DNA from: Porphyridium purpureum
Lineage: Eukaryota
Assembly: GCA_008690995.1 (NCBI GenBank)
Contig: VRMN01000017.1
Coordinates: 186,001 to 250,000, forward strand
DNA: 64,000 nucleotides
Reading direction: 5' to 3'
Shown here: piece by piece, positions 3,830 through 62,459 of the stretch
Layout: each line of letters opens with the position of its first letter
Position numbering within the stretch: the first letter of the stretch is position 1
The notes under the pieces: model-generated
What the model was told of the DNA's origin: nothing
The model's input: the letters and a program-made list of their open reading frames with translations, nothing else
The model's database searches: none
Made by a program: the position numbers and the translations under genes

Positions 3830-4480
3830 GCACGTGTCCATTGCGCGCATCGCCAGCGCAAAATCAACCAAATGGCACGGTGTAAAGGGTGACAGCGCTC
3901 GCACCACACCACGGCGTGTTCATCGCGCGCATCGCCAACGCAAAATCAACCAACCAACCAGGCGAAGGTGAAGGCGGCGCCCGCTCCACACCATCGCGTA
4001 TCCATTGCGCGCATTGCCAGTGCAACATCAACCAACAAGGTGTAATGGTCGGCAGCGCTCGCGCCTCACCAGCGCGTGTCCATGGCACGCACCGCCAACG
4101 CAGAATCAACCAACTAACAGGACGAAAGGGAAGGCAGCACTCGCGCCACACCACGGCGTGTCCATTGCGCGCACCGCCAAAGCAAAATCAACCAACTGGC
4201 ACGGCGTAAAGGGTGGTAGCGCTCGCACCGTACCACGGCGTGTCCATTGCACGCACCGCCAACGCAGAATCAACCAACGAACACAGCGAAAAGGAAGGCA
4301 TCACTCGCGCCACACCACGGCGCGTCCAGTGCACGCATCGCGAACTCAACATCAACCAACAAACAGGATGAAAAGGAAAGCAGCGCTCGCGCCACGCCAG
4401 AGCGCATCTATTGCGCACATCGCCAGTGCAACACCAACTAACACGGTGTAATGGTCGGCAGCGTGTGCGCCACACCACTT
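3830..4480. repeat. Degenerate ~81-bp tandem repeat, ~8 units
   Basis: Recurring core CACACCACGGCGTGTCCATTGCGCGCATCGCCAACGCAAAATCAACCAA about every 80-84 nt, with a variable purine-rich linker. Confidence 0.85.
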
Positions 4481-4874: not shown

Positions 4875-4968
4875 TCCGTTAAGCCATTAACCCATTAACC
4901 CATTAACCCATTAACCCATTAACCCATTAACCCATTAAGCTGTTAAGCTGTTAAGCCGGTAAGCCGTT
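4875..4968. repeat. 8-bp tandem array (CCCATTAA)6 with degenerate flanking units
   Basis: Six perfect CCCATTAA at 4891-4938, flanked in phase by TCCGTTAA, GCCATTAA, GCTGTTAA x2 and GCCGGTAA. Confidence 0.95.
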
Positions 4969-44510: not shown

Positions 44511-44630
44511 CGGCTCCTCGGCTTATCGGCTCCTCGGCTTATCGGCTCCTCGGCTTATCGGCTCCTCGGCTTATCGGCTCCTCGGCTTATCGGCTCCTCG
44601 GCTTATCGGCTCCTCGGCTTATCGGTTTGA
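44511..44630. repeat. Perfect 16-bp minisatellite (CGGCTCCTCGGCTTAT)7
   Basis: Seven exact units at 44511-44622, followed by CGGTTTGA; internal 8-bp periodicity. Confidence 0.95.
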
Positions 44631-50656: not shown

Positions 50657-52798
50657 CTACGCCACGATACGCGGGTATTCGGCGCGAATGCCGTTCTCCA
50701 TCTCAAAGTCTTCGCCTTCGAGCGGCTCGGAGAACTCGCCTCGACCGTACTCGTCGCGCACAATCGCTTGTTGGTACATGATATCGTCCGGTCGTGGTAC
50801 CAACGCCGGTCCTTCGGACGAGTACGAACTTTCCGTGTCTTCCTCCTCCTTGTTCGCCAAGATGAGAAACAGTGCGACCGCAATGATCAAAATCAACAAC
50901 AGTGCGGCAATGACCGAGATGACCGCAATGGCCCAAGTCGGCAGACCGCCAGACGCACCGCCCGGATCTACCGTTCCTGTTGGTACTGCTGATGGAGTCT
51001 CAATTGTTGAGCCCTCACCACGACGCACCCAATCGGGGTCCACAAACACATCCATCGCAAACTGATCGCTATCTAGGTACTCATCCAGATCCTGCCGCAC
51101 CCTGTTTGCGCCTTCGGCCGGCACAATGGCGCGCATCTCAATCTGAACGCCGTCTGCTTCTACCTGCCTGCCAGACGTGTCCATACCCGCGAGAAACCTT
51201 CTTCGGCCCGAGTTGGATACAGATGTGGGTACAATCGGCCCAAACAAGCTTCCAAAGTCCGGGTTGTTGCGGATCGCCCGAATCACCTTTGAGCATGTGT
51301 TGTTGGAAGTCGACGCCACATCCAGGAGAAGAAACTCGACATAAAACTGAATAATGTTGAATCTCTGGTCGTCATTGTCCAGAGTCCCAGTGATGCACAG
51401 CTCAGAGCTCGAAAACCTCACCTGACTGTTTGCCGCGGGCAACTGTGTGATCGGAGTGACGCCCGTCGTTGCATACTGGGCGTACATGCCAGGTACAAGA
51501 GCCTCGCCGGGCTCAATGGCGTCCGATGGCACGGTTGTCAGCCCCAACAAGTTGAGAAAATAAATTTGGAACGACGGCAACGGTGCATCCAAATCTGTAT
51601 ACGACATGTTTGCATTCACCTGCAACCGCCCGCCGAGTCCAGAGCCTTGGAATTCTGGCATGGTCTGGCTCGGATCACCAAGAGATAAAAAGCCTCCCAC
51701 CATCTCATCGTTCGACGGCCGTGGCGGGTCCACAAGATTGTACAGCGTCCAGGGGAAGATCTCCCAGCCAAAGTAATCAAACGTGTAGGATCTTCCAAAC
51801 TGGGATACGGTCGGCGGCACCGGCACGGACGCAATCGTGACTCGCAGCAGCGTCTCAAATGGCATACCGTTAATGTCCACATTCTCGTTGCCCTCCCACT
51901 CAATGTTGAACATGCCCACGCGGTACGGATTGATTACCAATACCAATGTATCGAGGTCCGGCGTGGCCTCGGAGTAGAAAATTTTGAAGCCACAGCCGGG
52001 GTCCAGTGGAAAGTCATCCGTGGCCGGATCGAATCCACCCTGCTGCGCCACCGGGCACGCGTCGCTATCACTCGTCTGGTTCTGCGGCGGGCCCATCACC
52101 GGCACCACCTGCTTGAGAAGATCATTGTACGGGAAGCGAGAAGCGACTGCCTGGTAGCGCCCAATGACGGGCATCACATACTGTGGCGTGGCCAGAGTGT
52201 CTTGGTAATTGCCCAGGTCGAGACTGTACAGCTCACCGGACACAATCTTCGGATCATCCGGGCTACCCGGGCTCGCGCGATCCGTGCCCGGAGCCAAGAT
52301 CACAAAGCCAAGCACATCAAAGCGCGGCAGCGCCAGGAAGCTTGCCGTGTACGGCTCAGACCCGGGCGACCCATCTCGAATGCTTGTGAAAATTTCGAGC
52401 GTGTAGACGGCGAGCCCGGGCAGGTAGTCAAACTCGAAATTCACCGTGATGTTGAAAACTGTGTAGCCACCCGAGCCAATCCCGCGCTCGGTGGCAACGT
52501 TAAAGTCACAGTCTGGCGCGCACGAAATAATCGTGTTCGCCTGACCTTCTCCCGTGATAACGTTGACGTCCGTCACGTTATCATTGTTTGCAAACGGGCG
52601 CAAAAAGAAAGTCAGCGAATCGGACGCGGAACCGTTTGTCTGCGCAATAATCACCGGCCCTTCGACATCACTGGTGATTTCGCCCGCCACAAAGTCCGAG
52701 CCCTGCGCGCGCGCGGCACCCGTGGCGTAGCTCACAGCCAGCAGGGTGAGCAATACCACCACGCACCCGCGTCTCAGCACAACGGCGTCGCCCGCCAT
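50657..52798 (-). CDS. Type I single-pass membrane protein of unknown function
   Basis: Signal peptide, beta-rich ectodomain, TM helix WAIAVISVIAALLLILIIAVALFLIL, acidic Tyr-containing tail. Confidence 0.8.
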   Translation of the reverse strand: MAGDAVVLRRGCVVVLLTLLAVSYATGAARAQGSDFVAGEITSDVEGPVIIAQTNGSASDSLTFFLRPFANNDNVTDVNVITGEGQANTIISCAPDCDFNVATERGIGSGGYTVFNITVNFEFDYLPGLAVYTLEIFTSIRDGSPGSEPYTASFLALPRFDVLGFVILAPGTDRASPGSPDDPKIVSGELYSLDLGNYQDTLATPQYVMPVIGRYQAVASRFPYNDLLKQVVPVMGPPQNQTSDSDACPVAQQGGFDPATDDFPLDPGCGFKIFYSEATPDLDTLVLVINPYRVGMFNIEWEGNENVDINGMPFETLLRVTIASVPVPPTVSQFGRSYTFDYFGWEIFPWTLYNLVDPPRPSNDEMVGGFLSLGDPSQTMPEFQGSGLGGRLQVNANMSYTDLDAPLPSFQIYFLNLLGLTTVPSDAIEPGEALVPGMYAQYATTGVTPITQLPAANSQVRFSSSELCITGTLDNDDQRFNIIQFYVEFLLLDVASTSNNTCSKVIRAIRNNPDFGSLFGPIVPTSVSNSGRRRFLAGMDTSGRQVEADGVQIEMRAIVPAEGANRVRQDLDEYLDSDQFAMDVFVDPDWVRRGEGSTIETPSAVPTGTVDPGGASGGLPTWAIAVISVIAALLLILIIAVALFLILANKEEEDTESSYSSEGPALVPRPDDIMYQQAIVRDEYGRGEFSEPLEGEDFEMENGIRAEYPRIVA

Positions 52799-53445: not shown

Positions 53446-54254
53446 CTTTAAATTCTCGCACGCTTGATGATGACAAGCGCACGAACCCGGATGACACAAC
53501 CCTTCTCAGATGACCGAACCCCAGCAACACGACGCACACAGCACAGAGAACACAACCACACGACGCACACAACACAGACGACGAATACCCGGGGCGTGGA
53601 AAATCCAGCGTATAGGGCCTCTACTATTGCCTTTCGCGTCGGCACAGACAGCACCGGTCTCGACAGGGGCAGGGTGTCGTAACGGACAAAGCCGCCGTCT
53701 GCCTTCAGTGCTCCAAGAGCACCGAAACCCCCCAGACACGATGTGCTGCTGGCTCTGCTACACAGGCTCAGCAAAAGGCCCCACGCCTTCCGACGACCAC
53801 GCCCAGGCACCCGACACCAAAGAACAACTCTTCCTTTTATTCTCTGTGTCCTTCTCCCTTGCCTCTCCTTCTTCCGCTCTAAAGAAAATCCGGGGAACCG
53901 CACAGGCCCGCGCCCATTATATACCCCGCCGTCCTTGCTGTCCTTGACGCGGAAGGGAGAAATTATTTCTCCCAAAGGCTGGGCTTTCCTCCGTTCGTTC
54001 CACAGAACGAAGCCACAGCCAGCCACGTCAGCAAGCGGCTCAATGGGTGCTGGCCGGCCGCCAAGCGGCTCCTGCTTCCCTCGGACACGCGACTCCGGCT
54101 CCTCGGGGCGAAAGACAACAATGCACAAACCAGAGGTACAGGGTAAAAAAACCACGTGGGCGAAAAAGCCCCTGTACCTCAAACAATTCCGAGACGCCGT
54201 ACCTCCGGGTGTACACCCAGGGCGTCTCTCGGACCGGAACACTTTTAATCCATG
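53446..54254 (-). repeat. 3' LTR
   Basis: Direct repeat of 58641-59419 with a few substitutions and a ~30-nt internal duplication near 53530-53570. Confidence 0.92.
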
Positions 54255-56128
54255 CTCCTCCTTCCGATCTGAGGGACGCGTAACATAGTCCAACACCTGA
54301 TATGACCTTCCGGAAACAAAGGTTTTGTCATCAAGTCGGACACGTTTTCCCCCGTCCTCACATATTCCAATCTCACCAGCTTTTGCTTCTCGCAAACTTG
54401 GTGTATCCACGCCAAGTCCGTGGCTCTGGTCACTGCCATGTGATGCAACTTTGGCGAGTAGCCCATCTTGACCGCACGGAGAACAACTTGACTATCACAA
54501 AGCAGGGTCAACGCATAATCACCCTCCTGCACGCTTCGAAGAAACGACAATGCCGGAAACAGAGACAACTGCACCGCTTCTTCCAGAGCGGCCATCTCAG
54601 ACTCAGAGGTCGAAGAGCTCACAAAGCGTTGCCTTCTGGAGCTCCAGTCGACCAGATACTTGTTTCCACCCGCGACCAAGTACGTCACTCGTCCAGACGT
54701 CGACTTGCGCGTTTCCGGACATCCAGCGAAGTCGGCATCAGCATAGCCCAAGACGCTTACGTCACCGACCTTCAATGACGTCATCCGCAAATACTCAAGT
54801 GGTTCACGAGGAACCTTCAAGTATTGCATGACGCGAACCAGGAGTCTCTCAGCTGCGACGTTCCAGCTATCCACGTACCGAGCCACCACTCCAACTGCGT
54901 ACGAGATATCCGGTCTGACCGTCCTGGCCAACCACAGCAGCCGCCCAACATGCTCGCGTATTTTCAGATGTCCATGTTCGACTTGAACATCCAATACAGC
55001 GTCAGCATTCATCTTCTCACCTGGTGATTTCACCGCTCGCAGCACCTGCCCAAGTTCTTCTTCGAATTCCTTCACCACCAAAGCTTGGTAGTGATCATGA
55101 TCCAACGAAAGCCGTGCCGCCGACTCCGAGATCGTGAGACCTAGGAACCTCAACGGGGTACCTTCCGAGAGGACTTCTGGCTCCTTCTCAATGAGGAACT
55201 CTGACCTCAACTCTCGAAATATCTCACCCCGATCCTTCTCGGCACACGCGAGCAGGCCATCATCGACATACAAGGCCAAGAGTGCAACAGATGCACTTCC
55301 CGCCATCTTTTTCACGTATACGTTCTTCTCACCGTGAATCAAGTCCCACCCGAACTTTTGAAGTCTTCTGCGGGCATCCTGGGAAAAGTCAGACCCGCTT
55401 CTTGGCAAGCCATAAAGCGCCCTTCTCAAGCGAACGACAAGTCCATCACCTCCTCCTGGAACGTGACGGGGCAACATGGCAAACGTCGGTGGTCCTGATA
55501 AGTCAGCGTGTAAGTACGCCGACGTCACATCGAACGACACGATTTTCAATCCCAGGATCGCGGCCAAAGCTATCAACATTCTGATTGCAGACAGGCCCGC
55601 GGGCACCTCATAGTCAAACACATCCTGAGTGACCTTCCCTGAGGCATCCCAAATCCTATTTCCACCAGCAACAAGCCGACACTTGACCTTGCGAAACTCC
55701 TCCGGAAGCTCAGCGAACTTCAATCCGAATATAAAGTGTGTCCGCACAAATCGTGCGCCTGGGACCTTGAGAGCTTCTTCCCTTGAAATGGGTTGCTCAT
55801 CCCATACCTTGAATCGAATCATCAAGTCCACTTCTTTTTGCATGGCTTCTCTTCCAGCCGAAGAAGCCAGAGCTTGGCTCGTCTGCAACAAAGTTGTCAA
55901 GTTCAATTGCGGTGTTTCTGGAGCAACTCCTGCGCGTTGCCTCCAATTTTCCTCCGAGAGGCCCATATTATGAGCCCGGGCTCGCACATCCTTTCCGTTT
56001 CTTGAATCGCGGAACACTGCCTTGTATTCTTGCAGAGTTCTTTCCCACTTCCCCCAGCCAAAGAGCCGTAAGCCATCCATGATGGCCTGATCCTCTTCCC
56101 GGCTCCAAGATACCCTGGGTTTTCGTTT
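54245..56128 (-). CDS. pol C-terminal part: Myb/SANT-like domain, Ty1/copia RT (RVT_2) and RNase H
   Basis: KCRLVAGGN, FDVTSAYLHADL, LRRALYGLPRSG, LYVDD, RPDISYAV, GYADADFAG, SSTSESEMAAL, NVSDLMTKPL. Stop codon lies inside the 3' LTR. Confidence 0.92.
   Translation of the reverse strand, partial: KRKPRVSWSREEDQAIMDGLRLFGWGKWERTLQEYKAVFRDSRNGKDVRARAHNMGLSEENWRQRAGVAPETPQLNLTTLLQTSQALASSAGREAMQKEVDLMIRFKVWDEQPISREEALKVPGARFVRTHFIFGLKFAELPEEFRKVKCRLVAGGNRIWDASGKVTQDVFDYEVPAGLSAIRMLIALAAILGLKIVSFDVTSAYLHADLSGPPTFAMLPRHVPGGGDGLVVRLRRALYGLPRSGSDFSQDARRRLQKFGWDLIHGEKNVYVKKMAGSASVALLALYVDDGLLACAEKDRGEIFRELRSEFLIEKEPEVLSEGTPLRFLGLTISESAARLSLDHDHYQALVVKEFEEELGQVLRAVKSPGEKMNADAVLDVQVEHGHLKIREHVGRLLWLARTVRPDISYAVGVVARYVDSWNVAAERLLVRVMQYLKVPREPLEYLRMTSLKVGDVSVLGYADADFAGCPETRKSTSGRVTYLVAGGNKYLVDWSSRRQRFVSSSTSESEMAALEEAVQLSLFPALSFLRSVQEGDYALTLLCDSQVVLRAVKMGYSPKLHHMAVTRATDLAWIHQVCEKQKLVRLEYVRTGENVSDLMTKPLFPEGHIRCWTMLRVPQIGRRSMD
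54255..54265 (-). other. Polypurine tract
   Basis: GGAAGGAGGAG immediately before the 3' LTR. Confidence 0.8.
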
Positions 56129-57665
56129 CCCCCCTTCTTCCAACAGGTAGGGGAACATCCTCCTCCAAGTTCCCGGATTCACGCGCCTCGGCCGTATTCG
56201 TAGGCAACACCATAGTCTCTTGACTATCCGGTTCTTCCTGCCTAGAGTGAAAGTCGATTTCACCCTCACGTGCCGAGACCTCCTCGTCATCCCTTGTTTC
56301 CAAAGTCCGCATTGGAAACACTTCAGGGAACGCCTTGAAGTCCTGAGTGCGAGTCAGCCTCGGTGCCGCGCTCGTCCACTCCTCCTGAGGAAGGACCCAG
56401 ATTGCCAGCGGATGCTCCGCAACTCCAACAAGGACTCCAATCTTTCCTCTGGGTGCATACTTGTTCTCAGGTTGATCATTCTTGAACACCACCTTGCATC
56501 CAAATGGTACTGCTACCTTCCCCCGCTTCCATCTCTCACCGTACCTCATTTCATACGGAGACTTCCCAGACCTCTTGTCTGGGTGCAGCCGATTGAACAT
56601 GAAGACGAAATGCTGAGCGGCATGCAAAAACCACCGCTTTCCCAGCCCAGACTGCAGGAGATTTGCTCGTACCCCCTGATTCAAAGTATGATGGAAACGT
56701 TCCTGTTCAGCGTGGCTATTTGGTCTATGTGGGACCCCAATCTCATGCTTCACGAGATTCTCCCGTACCAAATTGCTCACATTTCCCCTGAACTCGTTTC
56801 CATCATCTGTCCTCAGTACCTTTGGCCATCCTCGCCCGGCTTGCACGCTTGTCCAAGCTTCAGCAACCGCCGTATGCGTTTTGGCTCTCAATCCTGCCAG
56901 TGTGGCCCACCTCGTCGCTCTATCGATGTGCGTCAGTATGTACTTCGCCCCATCGATGGCTTCCACGTTACGTCCGGGCTCCACCAGGTCGATCCCAACT
57001 TCGTCATTGAGCGACAAAGTGGACAAGTCCTTCTCCAGCCTTCTTGCTGGTTGGCTCTTGATCTTGGCCACAACACACGTCTCACAATCATCCCGCATCG
57101 GCATGTGAGTCAACGCATGTTCCATCCCGGCCATCTTTCCTTCGACCCCTTCACTGGCACTCTCCTCTTCTCCATCGTACGCTTGATTTCCGCTTGACTC
57201 GGAAAGAGCGTCCACGACATTCACCATCGCACAATCTTCCACATTTTCAAGTCCCAAGTCCATCGAACCCCTCTGCCAATCAATCCTCGGGTTCACGCGA
57301 CTCAGCCAGTCCCACCCGAGAATTGCATCCATTTGCAGCGGTCCGACATAAAACTTGACCGGCCCTTTCCAGAACCCAAGATCAACATGCTGCAACACCG
57401 GGCCATGCACTAAGACACTTTGCCCACCCGCAAGCTTGACCATTCCGTTCTCGCGCCCTTCAAATCTGCCGACAAAGCGAGATCCAAGAAAATTGTGCGA
57501 TGCTCCGCTGTCCACCAGAAATTGGACAGACTCGCCATCTAAAGTTCCACGCTTGTAGAGCAACCTCGACGCCGCATCAGCGCGCCAGACCTCACCTACA
57601 AAGCCCATCCCGGGAGGTTCCGTTCCCCTCGAGTGCACCTCCCAGCTTCTCCCTCGAGGTTTTAG
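56129..57665 (-). CDS. pol N-terminal part: aspartic protease + integrase
   Basis: FLVDSGASHNF...DAILGWDWLSRVNPRIDW; HALTHMPMRDDCETC; D-D-E core VGIDLV / LRTDDGNEF / EQERFHHTL; FGCKV, GVLVG. In the -1 frame relative to gag. Confidence 0.9.
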
Positions 57666-57671
57666 TTTTCC
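57612..57671 (-). other. Predicted -1 ribosomal frameshift signal (slippery site + H-type pseudoknot)
   Basis: G GAA AAC, 5-nt spacer, stem 1 CCTCGAG/CTCGAGG, stem 2 GGGAGGT/ACCTCCC. Confidence 0.8.
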
Positions 57672-58618
57672 GGGCCTCCCGCCAAGTGCCCATTCCGCTT
57701 TGGGCAATTGGGTTTGATGTGGCCGCGCTGCCCGCAATGGTAGCATCTGACTTTGCCCATGTCCGCATGCTTGCGCTTCTCCGGCTGGCGTTTCTCCACG
57801 ACGCCCAAATCCATTGGCGCCGTCCCGGCATACGACGAGCTGTTCCGGTAGTTTGGACTCGAGGCGCCATGAAAAGCCTCCCTCATGTCTCCTCCAAACC
57901 TACCAACCTGCTCCGCAGCCAACGCCGCCCTCAGCGACTCTTCCAGCGTCTTCGTGTCCTGACGCGCCACCTCAAGGCGAAGCTTCTCCTTCAGGCCGAG
58001 AGTGAAGATGGTGTTGAGCTCGGCATCTGTCACACTATCCACGGACAGAGCCACCATCCTCAGGCGCTGCTCAAACTCAGCAACAGTCATCTTGCCCTGC
58101 TTCAGCTGATACAAGTTCGTTCGAGCAGTCAGGTATGCCTGCGGCGGCTCAAATGCCGTCCGCACGAAGCTCGCGAACGCATTCCAACCGGACTCGGCCA
58201 ATGCCATCCTCTGTTCCTCAGGGCGAGCTGCCCACAACAGCGCGGCATCCTTCTCAAAGAAGCGCGACGCTACGATCACCTTCTGCGACTCCAGCGCTCC
58301 AGCTGGCATGCACATGTCCAAGTCTTGCTTCATCCTCGACAACCACTCGTTCACAACGAGTTTGTCGCGCTGTCCGTCGTATTTTCTCAAGCTGCGTCCA
58401 ATCAGCGATGCAACGGTCCTTTCCGTTTCGCCGGGACCAGCTGACACAGATGCCTGATGCATCACATTCTGCAGCATCTCCTGCAAGAGGCGATTTCCCT
58501 CCTGCAGCTGCACAATCATCATTTCTTGTCCTCCGATACGAGCATGAAGCTGGTTGAAAGCTTCAATCCACGACGCGCCGCCCTGCAGGCCCTGCACGTT
58601 CATTCCCTCAGAATCCAT
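57662..58618 (-). CDS. Gag (Ty3/gypsy-like) with CCHC zinc knuckle
   Basis: KYDGQRD..V.EWL, LYQLKQGKMTVAEF..., FTLGLKEKLR, APMDLG, CYHCGQRGHIKPNC. Confidence 0.92.
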   Translation of the reverse strand: MDSEGMNVQGLQGGASWIEAFNQLHARIGGQEMMIVQLQEGNRLLQEMLQNVMHQASVSAGPGETERTVASLIGRSLRKYDGQRDKLVVNEWLSRMKQDLDMCMPAGALESQKVIVASRFFEKDAALLWAARPEEQRMALAESGWNAFASFVRTAFEPPQAYLTARTNLYQLKQGKMTVAEFEQRLRMVALSVDSVTDAELNTIFTLGLKEKLRLEVARQDTKTLEESLRAALAAEQVGRFGGDMREAFHGASSPNYRNSSSYAGTAPMDLGVVEKRQPEKRKHADMGKVRCYHCGQRGHIKPNCPKRNGHLAGGPEN

Positions 58619-58622
58619 CTTC

Positions 58623-58640
58623 GCCGATGCGATGATACCA
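58623..58640 (-). other. Primer-binding site, probably initiator tRNA-Met
   Basis: TGGTATCATCGC directly after the 5' LTR; first 8 nt match the classical iMet PBS TGGTATCA. Confidence 0.75.
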
Positions 58641-59419
58641 CTTTAAATTCTCGCACGCTTGATGATGACAAGCGCACGAGCCCGGATGACACAACCCTTC
58701 TCAGATGACCGAACCCCAGCAACACGACGCACACAACACAGACGACGAATACCCGGGGCGTGGAAAATCCAACGTATAGGGCCTCTACTATTGCCTTTCG
58801 CGTCGGCACAGACAGCACCGGTCTCGACAGGGGCAGGGTGTCGTAACGGACAAAGCCGCCGTCTGCCTTCAGTGCTCTAAGAGCACCGAAACCCCCCAGA
58901 CACGATGTGCTGCTGGCTCTGCTACACAGGCTCAGCAAAAGGCCCCACGCCTTCCGACGGCCACGCCCAGGCACCCGACACCAAAGAACAAACTCCTCTT
59001 TTATTCTCTGTGTCCTACTCCCTTGCCTCTCCTTCTTCCGCTCTAAAGAAAATCCGGGGAACCGCACAGGCCCGCGCCCATTATATACCCCGCCGTCCTT
59101 GCTGTCCTTGACGCGGAAGGGAGAAATTATTTCTCCCAAAGGCTGGGCTTTCCTCCGTTCGTTCCACAGAACGAAGCCACAGCCAGCCACGTCAGCAAGC
59201 GGCTCAATGGGTGCTGGCCGGCCGCCAAGCGGCTCCTGCTTCCCTCGGACACGCGACTCCGGCTCCTCGGGGCGAAAGACAACAATGCACAAACCAGAGG
59301 TACAGGGTAAAAAAAACCACGTGGGCGAAAAAGCCCCTGTACCTCAAACAATTCCGAGACGCCGTACCTCCGGGTGTACACCCAGGGCGTCTCTCGGACC
59401 GGAACACTTTTAATCCATG
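58641..59419 (-). repeat. 5' LTR
   Basis: Direct repeat of 53446-54254; TATATAA on the minus strand near 59080. Confidence 0.92.
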
Positions 59420-59954: not shown

Positions 59955-62459
59955 ATGGGGAATTGCTTGTCGGCCTCGGAACCGAGTGCGGCGGCCTCGG
60001 GCAAGCAGGCAGACAAGCCATCGTCTCCGACGCCCGTCAAGAAAAATACGGATGCTGTTCCCAAGGCGTCAGGACCAGAGCGGCCCGCGGCAAAGAAGGT
60101 ACAGGCCGCGCCCGTCGTGGACTCGACATCGTCGGCATCGTACTCGGCAAACGGTGGGTCGGAGCTTTTCGGACTGTTTGCCAAGAAGGACGAGGAAGAC
60201 AAAACCTTTTCTCTGCTTGGGGCCAAAAAGTCCAAGGTGCGCCTTGCCCAGCATGGCTTTGACGACTCAGCGGCAGCGGCGGATGCGCAGGCACCGCACA
60301 TTTCCGTGCTCGAGGGTGAAGCCATGACCATGTGGTACCGCGTGATTGTGGCGTCCGCGTCAACGCCAATCGACGAAAAGAGCGTTCAACAATGCATAGA
60401 CAGCGTCTTTGCCTTGGTGGACTCCAAGTTCAACAACTGGAACCCGAATAGCGAGATCAATCAGCTGAACGCGCTCAAGGCCAAGAAAAAGATGGACGCA
60501 TCGCCGGAAATGCACCAGCTCTTTGCGTTGATTGATAACGTGCACACACTCTCTGACGGCCGTTTTGACCCCACGGTGGATCCACTGATCAAGATCTGGA
60601 CAAAGAGTCTGGTCGAGTACGGGCATCCGTGCTCCTCACAGGACACTTCGCACCTCAAGTTTGCTCTAGGCTGGAAGACGAAAGTGACGCGCAAAAACTT
60701 GTCGGTTATGCTGGAGAATTCAAACACAAGTATCGACTTGTGCGGCATTGTGAAAGGTTATGCGGTGGACGAGATTCTAACACGAATCCAGAATGCGCGC
60801 TGGGTGGGGAACAACAAGATTAGCATTTACGTGGACTGGGCAGGGGATATTCGCAGCATCGGTATGCACCCGACTGGAAGGCCATGGCGCTCGGCTGTGA
60901 TGCAGCCGCCAGAGCTCAAACGCCTCTTTGATCTCTGGGCCTCTGACCGCATGGATCTCGCAGTTTCCGAAAAGGACGTGCAGTTTTTCGTAGACTTCCC
61001 GGACTCACATGGGGGTGCCGCGCTAGCCACGAGCGGCGACTATTTTCGCATTCAGAAATTCGGTTACCATCATATTTATGATATTACGAACCATACACCT
61101 TTGAAGGCCGGCGTGGGCTCGCTTGCCTCCGTGTCCGTACTTGCAAGCGATTGCACTACAGCGGATTCGCTCGCGACGGCTGGCATGACATGTGGCACCG
61201 TAAAAGCGGCCTCTGCATTTTTCGACGGTCTCATGAAATCGCAGCCTGATACATTGCTTGGTTACTGCCTAATTGGCCGGTCCAATGGCGATGTCAAGTA
61301 TACGAGTGTCTTTAAGAGACACAATGATTACCTTGAATCACACGGCGTCAAGACAAAAGCTTCTGACGTTTCGCCCGCACCGGGAAGCCTGATTGGTGTA
61401 GAACCTGCCGCCCTCAAGAAGCGAAACACGGACTCCAACAAGGCGCTCTTTCCAGCCGTTCTCAATCAGCTTCCGCGTACGTTGTGTGTGGTCGGTGTTA
61501 ACCAGTCAGGTGGGAAGCCATTCGTGACTGGGGTCTGCGGCTCAGTCGCGTCGTGCTCTCTATCCCCGCCATCCTTTTCCCTGCTGGTGGACCCAAGTGT
61601 GCTACCAGTTGCGGTGGGCACCGAGCTGCACGTTGCCTACTTGAACGAGAACACACGAGAACTTGTCGAAGCCTCGACAAATAATAGCAGCTCGTTCGTG
61701 GACTGGGCTCTGAAGCCTGGTGTACAATGCAAGGACGCGAAGGACTGGCAGAAAATGTTCGGCAAGGTATGCGCTGGGATGCTTGGGACAGTGGTGAAAG
61801 TGGAGAGTGTGGACGCCCATTGTGCGGTTGCTATTGTGAATCCGAGCTCCTTCACACTGATGCCCAAGAGCGGGGCGCGGCTACACGGAATTGGGTCGCG
61901 TTTGGTGTCTGGTCCGATTGTTGCGGAGAAGTACATTTGCGACTCGGTCGCGATTGAGGAGGACGAGCGTCTCAAGCGATTAATGCGCTCGAATCGGTCA
62001 CCGGTCTGTGTAGTATCCGTAAGCTCAGCAGACGGCCGCGCTCATGCGCTCACGGCGAGCTCGGTGCGAACCGAGCCGCGCACGGGTGCTAGCTTTGCGT
62101 TCAATATCCAGAAGGGGTCCGTTTTTCGCTCATCTCTTGGCTTTGAAGGCTCACGCGTAGCGCTCCACTGGCTTCACCCCGTGCAAGAGTCTTTGGCGGA
62201 ATACCACACCAAGTCAGTCACACTTGACACATCGCGCGCCGACTCGCTGTCAAATGTGGTCTCTCGTGACGAGATGGGCAGCGGCTGGCCGCCAGTGATT
62301 GCGGGCTGCGCGGCGGTTCTAATTTGCACCGTGGTGTGTGTGACTGACGCAGGTGATCATTTGGTATACGTGTGCCGCGCAACACACGTTCCGGAAGACT
62401 TGGGCACCGGCGTGTTCCTGACGTATGGCAACGGCAACTACTCCGTCCTGGAAGGTTAG
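59955..62459 (+). CDS. ApbE-type FAD:protein FMN transferase fused to two flavin-reductase-like domains, N-terminal MGNC acylation motif
   Basis: ApbE motifs SEINQLN, GRFDPTV.PL, IDLCGIVKGYAVD, AGDI, LATSGDY, HHIYD, ADSLATA. C-terminal PVCVVS...ALTASSV...DAGDHLVYV, plus a degenerate first copy (SVASCSLSPP). Confidence 0.85.
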   Translation: MGNCLSASEPSAAASGKQADKPSSPTPVKKNTDAVPKASGPERPAAKKVQAAPVVDSTSSASYSANGGSELFGLFAKKDEEDKTFSLLGAKKSKVRLAQHGFDDSAAAADAQAPHISVLEGEAMTMWYRVIVASASTPIDEKSVQQCIDSVFALVDSKFNNWNPNSEINQLNALKAKKKMDASPEMHQLFALIDNVHTLSDGRFDPTVDPLIKIWTKSLVEYGHPCSSQDTSHLKFALGWKTKVTRKNLSVMLENSNTSIDLCGIVKGYAVDEILTRIQNARWVGNNKISIYVDWAGDIRSIGMHPTGRPWRSAVMQPPELKRLFDLWASDRMDLAVSEKDVQFFVDFPDSHGGAALATSGDYFRIQKFGYHHIYDITNHTPLKAGVGSLASVSVLASDCTTADSLATAGMTCGTVKAASAFFDGLMKSQPDTLLGYCLIGRSNGDVKYTSVFKRHNDYLESHGVKTKASDVSPAPGSLIGVEPAALKKRNTDSNKALFPAVLNQLPRTLCVVGVNQSGGKPFVTGVCGSVASCSLSPPSFSLLVDPSVLPVAVGTELHVAYLNENTRELVEASTNNSSSFVDWALKPGVQCKDAKDWQKMFGKVCAGMLGTVVKVESVDAHCAVAIVNPSSFTLMPKSGARLHGIGSRLVSGPIVAEKYICDSVAIEEDERLKRLMRSNRSPVCVVSVSSADGRAHALTASSVRTEPRTGASFAFNIQKGSVFRSSLGFEGSRVALHWLHPVQESLAEYHTKSVTLDTSRADSLSNVVSRDEMGSGWPPVIAGCAAVLICTVVCVTDAGDHLVYVCRATHVPEDLGTGVFLTYGNGNYSVLEG

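Follow-up and report, generated by a model that had tools for sequence, protein, structure and literature searches.

A conserved and likely DNA-binding Myb domain between the integrase and the reverse transcriptase of several Porphyridium purpureum LTR retrotransposon families

The integrase C-terminus carries a chromodomain in the Ty3/Gypsy chromoviruses, the oomycete Chronos and the diatom Ty1/Copia elements CoDi-A and CoDi-I, as passages of two reports describe (PMC2774666, PMC5348765). In Ty1 and Ty5, the integrase C-termini are transferable targeting modules, known as the Ty1 TD1-AC40 and the Ty5 TD5-Sir4 pairs (sections of PMC7459421), and Tf1 depends on tethering by Sap1 (sections of PMC5741268 and PMC7459421). 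The non-LTR retrotransposon R2Bm reads part of its target with a Myb domain in cis (part of PMC12222951).

Here, we find that several retrotransposon families of the single-celled red alga Porphyridium purpureum carry a conserved Myb domain between the integrase (IN) and the reverse transcriptase (RT), which likely binds DNA and would help to choose the insertion sites. As with the chromodomain integrases, a captured host-type nuclear domain sits at the integrase C-terminus and is held to steer integration, and as in CoDi the element is algal and of the Copia order. The two systems differ in the contact, which is made with methyl-lysine by the chromodomains and is predicted to be made with DNA by the basic Myb helix-turn-helix.

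Ty1, Ty5, Tf1 and the P. purpureum element all appear to use the integrase C-terminus as a modular targeting slot in gene-dense genomes, but the former rely on short motifs or host-protein bridges whereas the latter encodes a folded domain of a DNA-binding type. With R2, the element shares a retroelement-encoded Myb in cis. However, R2 is a non-LTR element with an N-terminal Myb and inserts into one rDNA site by target-primed reverse transcription, whereas the P. purpureum element is a dispersed LTR element with a DDE integrase.

PyRE10G of Porphyra yezoensis, compared here by its name and a reference title, is reportedly a Copia element that is Gypsy-like in part. Both it and the P. purpureum element are red-algal, Copia-order and of mixed Copia and Gypsy features, the P. 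purpureum gag and protease being the Gypsy-like parts, and the passages on PyRE10G make no mention of a Myb domain. The word Myb is absent from the main text of PMC5348765, PMC3248453 and PMC2836005. We found no report of Myb in an LTR-element integrase among the records listed for Myb in LTR or Copia integrases and for Porphyridium retrotransposons, and an earlier description may exist outside this set, as in most subscription journals, Repbase, GyDB or supplements.

The window, which is the whole 64,000-nucleotide stretch of a P. purpureum contig (VRMN01000017.1) analysed here, holds the element at 53446-59419 on the minus strand (Table 1). It is a young, multi-copy, Copia-order LTR retrotransposon, and an alignment of its two LTRs has 6 mismatches and four indels, three of 1 bp and one of 31 bp. 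Its family, here P0001, forms a 90% cluster of 17 proteins, 15 of them listed, and its annotated copies lie on at least 10 scaffolds. P0001 had no match to the chromodomain profile PF00385 at E<=0.1.

The order PR-IN-RT-RH with an RVT_2-type RT is that of Ty1/Copia. The gag and protease (PR) are not, as they match the Ty3-type profiles of Table 1 and not the Copia types PF14223 and PF22936. The primer-binding-site-like sequence is one that we take to be of the tRNA-iMet type, and no tRNA gene was found in the 64-kb window. The gag-pol junction is likely a programmed -1 frameshift, judging from its letters, and a downstream stem of -20 kcal/mol is predicted, a value that has no shuffle control. 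The database gene model P0001 bridges this junction by skipping the zinc knuckle.

Table 1. Features of the Myb-bearing LTR retrotransposon in the window
Feature	Position	Strand	Description
5' LTR	58641..59419	-	779 bp; starts CATGG, ends TTTAAAG (not TG...CA)
Primer-binding-site-like sequence	58625..58640	-	starts TGGTATCA; adjoins 5' LTR
gag	57662..58618	-	318 aa; Ty3/Gypsy-type capsid (PF03732 Retrotrans_gag, PF19259 Ty3_capsid), CCHC knuckle (zf-CCHC)
gag-pol junction	57662..57671	-	G GAA AAC before gag stop; pol in -1 frame
Aspartic protease	57297..57548	-	Gypsy-type profiles PF13650, PF13975
Integrase	56412..57125	-	HHCC-like finger; rve core 56954-56721; weak SH3 match 56507-56412
Myb domain	55964..56128	-	single SANT/Myb-family domain, after integrase SH3 and before RT
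Hydrophobic-Thr motif, RT N-terminus	55886..55909	-	conserved in 26 relatives; downstream of Myb
Copia-type RT and RNase H region	54245..55885	-	RVT_2 at 55753-55061; stop inside first bases of 3' LTR
Polypurine tract	54255..54265	-	directly before 3' LTR
3' LTR	53446..54254	-	809 bp

The original prediction had placed a Myb domain between integrase and RT, and its position stands, but in the window copy it is not in the integrase frame. The G6 run at 56134-56129 (minus strand) has one base more than the contigs of all four runs compared, and in run X4 the extra base at 56129 is absent at a depth of 34,598 of 39,181. In the window copy, the integrase frame thus continues out of register until it meets a stop at 55968, overlapping the Myb-RT frame.

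Among the cluster members listed, 12 of the 14 Pol-bearing proteins have PR-IN-Myb-RT-RH in one frame, and the remaining two models stop at the 56129 spot or skip it. Since the extra base is absent in 4/4 runs and these 12 proteins read through, the P0001 family encodes PR-IN-Myb-RT-RH as a single protein. The extra base may have arisen by mutation or as an error of the assembly. A programmed frameshift at this base was considered and rejected, since other copies are in frame.

The minus-strand translation of 56128-55964 gives the same 55 residues as those first described. As an isolated domain, they score 29.8 bits against the Pfam Myb_DNA-binding profile PF00249 (29.4 in another search; E 6.5e-7; cut-off 24.4), so that the suspected Myb/SANT domain is real by the Pfam check proposed for it. 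Within the whole polyprotein, the score is 23.0-24.2 bits, slightly below the cut-off, and the precomputed annotation of P0001 has no Myb entry. Similar cases elsewhere may hence be missed.

Human TRF1 is the best solved-structure match by sequence (E 4e-4). Structure prediction, which had also been proposed as a check, gave a three-helix helix-turn-helix closest to TRF1, with a pLDDT of 88.6 and helices at residues 10-23, 28-34 and 45-54 when modelled from an 8-row alignment; a model from the single sequence had a poor pLDDT of 64. VIA-align superposed the model on hTRF1 1w0t with Z 8.9 and an rmsd of 1.3 A over 51 residues. By class, the Z scores were 8.1-8.9 for TRF domains, 6.1-6.6 for c-Myb repeats and 5.7-6.2 for SANT-type domains.

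A Z near 8 is common among small helical domains, so the profile match carries the Myb assignment and the fold confirms it. Foldseek ranked TRF1 chains first for the model, with nothing at E<=0.001 in the PDB and the viral library. The first two Trp are invariant in all eight aligned domains and the third is replaced in all eight, by Ala in the window element as had been noted for it. The domain of the window element is basic with a net charge of +4 and a pI of 10.0.

The domain had been called telobox-like, which holds for the fold, TRF1 being the nearest solved structure, and fails for the recognition motif. Like the telobox proteins TRF1, TRF2 and SMH, it is a single repeat that has a basic N-terminal arm and the same distance between the first two Trp, and it superposes closely on 1w0t (part of PMC4924339). 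However, it differs from them in the third Trp and in that no telomeric location was seen. The telobox motif is LKDKWRT in the same source (part of PMC4924339), and helix 3 here reads GKDVRARAHNM with VRARAHN in the place of LKDKWRT, so the domain is unlikely to recognise telomeric repeats.

That the domain is a true telobox, with copies directed to telomeric repeats or telo-boxes, is a very unlikely reading. TRF1 and TRF2 are the best matches by both sequence and fold, and passages of PMC3622300 give no telomere repeat for P. purpureum. Against these points, LKDKWRT is absent, the annotated copies are spread over the scaffolds counted above, and nine flanks, including those of the window copy, have no telomere-like repeat. 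The last result agrees with the earlier remark that this copy is not in telomeric repeats.

The SHAQKYF class was considered too. Its model TIGR01557 scored 13.6 bits against a cut-off of 29.3 and matched the first half only, with the change of the third Trp to Ala being shared.

The fold matches include the SANT domains of Ada2, RSC and CHD1. Targeting would be indirect if the domain were SANT-like and bound proteins, either histone tails or a chromatin factor of the host; these matches speak for such a module, as do the lack of the telobox residues in helix 3 and the CW fingers in the same slot of relatives. An acidic surface is the criterion for histone-binding SANT. Six of the eight aligned domains are basic (pI 9.7-11.1), the window element and five of the seven others, and only those of P0232 (net -5) and P0241 (net -7) are acidic. 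With two acidic families on its side and the basic majority and the higher Z scores of the DNA-binding TRF domains against it, this protein-binding reading is quite unlikely.

For conservation, a set of 247 proteins was assembled by searching 1.84 billion representatives with Myb-RT-RH (best 150), by an IN-RT-RH search and by cluster look-ups. A profile from eight seed domains matches 29 of them in nine lineages, and the best reversed-sequence control scored 4.5 bits. The lineages, all named P. purpureum, are P0001, P0018, P0091, P0093, P0092, P0099, P0147 (partial), P0087/P0232 and P0131/P0241. The RT identities between them are 34-67%, mostly 34-49%.

PF00249 alone matches seven of the eight aligned domains individually at E<=1, and leave-one-group-out profiles recover six of the eight at E<1e-4; the weak ones are P0099 (E 0.026) and P0241 (E 0.12). 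Among P0018, P0091 and P0093, the pairwise identities are 67, 60 and 72% in Myb, 61, 61 and 67% in RT-RH, and 7, 10 and 5% in the upstream linker. P0001 is 24-40% identical to the seven others in Myb, 34-38% in RT-RH and 7-25% in the linker.

Because the Myb domain is about as conserved as RT across the nine lineages and the neighbouring linker is not, the domain is by this measure under selection. A neutral decay, which would have spoken against the original prediction, does not fit this pattern, and a dN/dS well below 1 across the families is largely implied by it. Within the P0001 family, 12 copies vary at 3 of 60 positions in Myb, 6 of 55 in the linker and 18 of about 345 in RT, a variation too low for a selection test.

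That the domain is a neutral passenger captured from the host is a very unlikely account. Several successful families do without Myb, and in P0099 and P0241 the domain is weak or appears to drift. However, across RTs of such diverged identity it is kept at the RT level with the adjacent linker at background, and both core Trp never change.

The identity pattern fits one old capture followed by vertical descent and losses. A quick RT tree of 59 rows has four changes of the Myb state, in which gain and loss are not distinguishable. Near-identical copies and RT matches shorter than 270 residues were left out of the RT trees, all quick trees, and the Myb-only tree is poorly resolved with one of five branches starred.

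No host donor of the domain was found. The Myb profile run on proteins of 113-2000 aa (best 7996 candidates) gave nine matches, all of them P. purpureum retrotransposon proteins, which is weak evidence for absence elsewhere. The Myb region had no relative in the metagenome and viral contigs searched, where an RT query gave five distant loci at 23-29% identity. The best lead of an Atlas search with the Myb region was 0.78, below 0.9.

The slot between integrase and RT appears in other forms as well. The sister family P0016/P0017, at 72% RT and 75% IN identity, counts 16 cluster members and bears a coiled coil in place of Myb, and at least five further P. purpureum families are without Myb. Because of the sister family and these other families, Myb is, as far as such a comparison tells, dispensable for spreading. 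A CW finger (zf-CW) occupies the same slot in P0064, P0118, P0126 and P0136.

Other relatives have there a Cys/His module, absent from the window element and without a Pfam name. Its pattern after the integrase SH3 is CxxC-x~10-CxxC-x~8-H-x~5-C-x4-CxC, as in P0099 at 953-992 and P0088 at 225-263. It matches 24 of the 247 proteins, among which P0220 looks unrelated, and P0099 has the module plus Myb. An Atlas search with this module reached 0.81 to unnamed clusters, below 0.9. P0033, an unrelated Copia-order protein with a Ty3-type gag and a Copia-type protease, has a chromodomain after the integrase SH3.

Thus, the slot is modular, with Myb, coiled coil, Cys/His module and CW finger swapped in it. 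Exchange has also reached the front halves, since one RT clade has two unrelated ones, either the Ty3-type gag and protease with a lineage-specific integrase or the canonical Copia gag, PR and IN. The canonical set is found only in P0232, P0240, P0241 and P0246. The integrase data reject the RT clade with an AU p of 1e-54 (quick tree, 14 rows vs 14).

Two of the four families with the canonical Copia integrase bear Myb, so Myb stands behind two unrelated integrase cores. These two families, P0232 and P0241, are chimeric, with gag-PR-IN taken from another lineage and Myb kept together with RT-RH. Both this linkage, which also fits an RT-linked role, and the acidic charge of the same two domains count against targeting, as does the spread of the families without Myb.

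The LTR ends depart from Ty1/Copia as well, being CA...AG and not TG...CA. These termini are fixed by the flank divergence in the window and by loose contig ends from four runs, and a similar word, ATT(T/A)AAAG, is borne at both LTR ends. The unusual ends, the shared word and the linkage of Myb to RT-RH through the front-half swap would all suit a Myb that acts on the element's own DNA, holding the LTR ends in the intasome, helping RT or regulating the LTR promoter without any choice of target.

This action on the element's own DNA is unlikely. A related family in the runs has the same first LTR bases (match from 54249), and the sister family has reached its 16 cluster members without a Myb. 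Moreover, the TG/CA ends are missing also in 3 of 26 diatom CoDi families, for which no Myb is reported in the sections concerned (PMC2806351).

As a separate observation at the loose end at 54249, the LTR start of the related family has AACCCTAAAA (plus strand), similar to a plant telo-box, and the Myb-bearing family is without it. The identity of this related family as the Myb-less sister is a guess.

The genes beside the window copy start at 52798 and 59955, in agreement with the earlier statement that it lies between two divergent genes. There is no target-site duplication around the copy, which suggests that two copies have recombined or that the assembly was joined here, so this location may not be the original insertion site. 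In run X15, an identical 5-mer occurs on one left and one right flank that are not tied to a single insertion. In run X14, two LTRs are joined head to tail and only a few bases separate them, and among the database copies there are two pairs whose accession numbers are neighbours; together, these hint at tandem insertion.

A set of nine 30-base flanks was used for the insertion sites, two from the window and seven being single-contig loose ends among the rows listed. Three two-contig consensus rows and the primer-binding-site-type ends were dropped, and some flanks may come from related families. Their mean AT content, counted by hand, is 57% against 43% for the window 30-mers, and it was reached in 0 of 20000 random draws. 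The AT-rich flanks fit a bias to AT-rich DNA and also a selection against genic insertions, in a comparison that has no Myb-less control.

The motif bias for which a check of the insertion sites had been proposed did not appear in this small set, the nine flanks having no clear motif in common. A 10-mer common to two flanks was judged to be chance, for it occurs also once inside the integrase gene and 1.12 one-mismatch matches are expected in the window.

Other features of the window are noted in their own right. The single frame at 59955-62459 (plus strand) has 842 codons and joins an ApbE flavin transferase to a flavin-reductase-like domain. Tandem arrays lie at 1897-2790 (75 bp, 11.9 copies), at 3833-4478 (82 bp, 8 copies) and at 44511-44625, the last being a perfect 16-bp array of 7.2 copies made of two alternating 8-mers. 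An array of an 8-bp unit at 4876-4968 (TTAACCCA, 7.5 copies, 98% match) looks like an interstitial telomere-type repeat.

The explanation that we prefer is that Myb, likely the tail of the integrase and predicted to bind DNA, would tether the integration complex and bias insertion. Targeting is here read from the sequence, the fold model and the analogy with known integrases, and we place this explanation about midway between doubt and acceptance. Its first step would be the likely -1 frameshift, followed by proteolysis to release the pol products.

Ty1 processing is the basis for placing the cut between IN and RT at the RT N-terminal motif. Because the conserved hydrophobic-Thr motif lies downstream of Myb, the cut would fall there and Myb would be left on the integrase. 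Several Myb copies in a multimeric intasome would then contact the target DNA, each with helix 3 and its basic N-terminal arm, presumably with a gain in avidity. Their specificity would be low or non-telomeric, with a probable preference for AT-rich and likely intergenic DNA in the gene-dense genome.

A broader form of the preferred explanation is possible but somewhat unlikely. By it, the integrase would read the target directly through a self-encoded, portable Myb with no host tether, as the LTR counterpart of the Myb of R2. The domain would function on two unrelated cores, and by putting coiled-coil or zinc modules in its place the families would share out the insertion niches of the compact genome.

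If targeting by Myb is true, a DDE integrase with a DNA-binding domain encoded by the element itself would represent a third route beside the chromodomains and the short host-protein-binding motifs. It would also lend itself as a model for integrases that can be retargeted. Sister families with and without Myb, similar in copy number, make a built-in experiment, their insertion sites being comparable in the public assembly.
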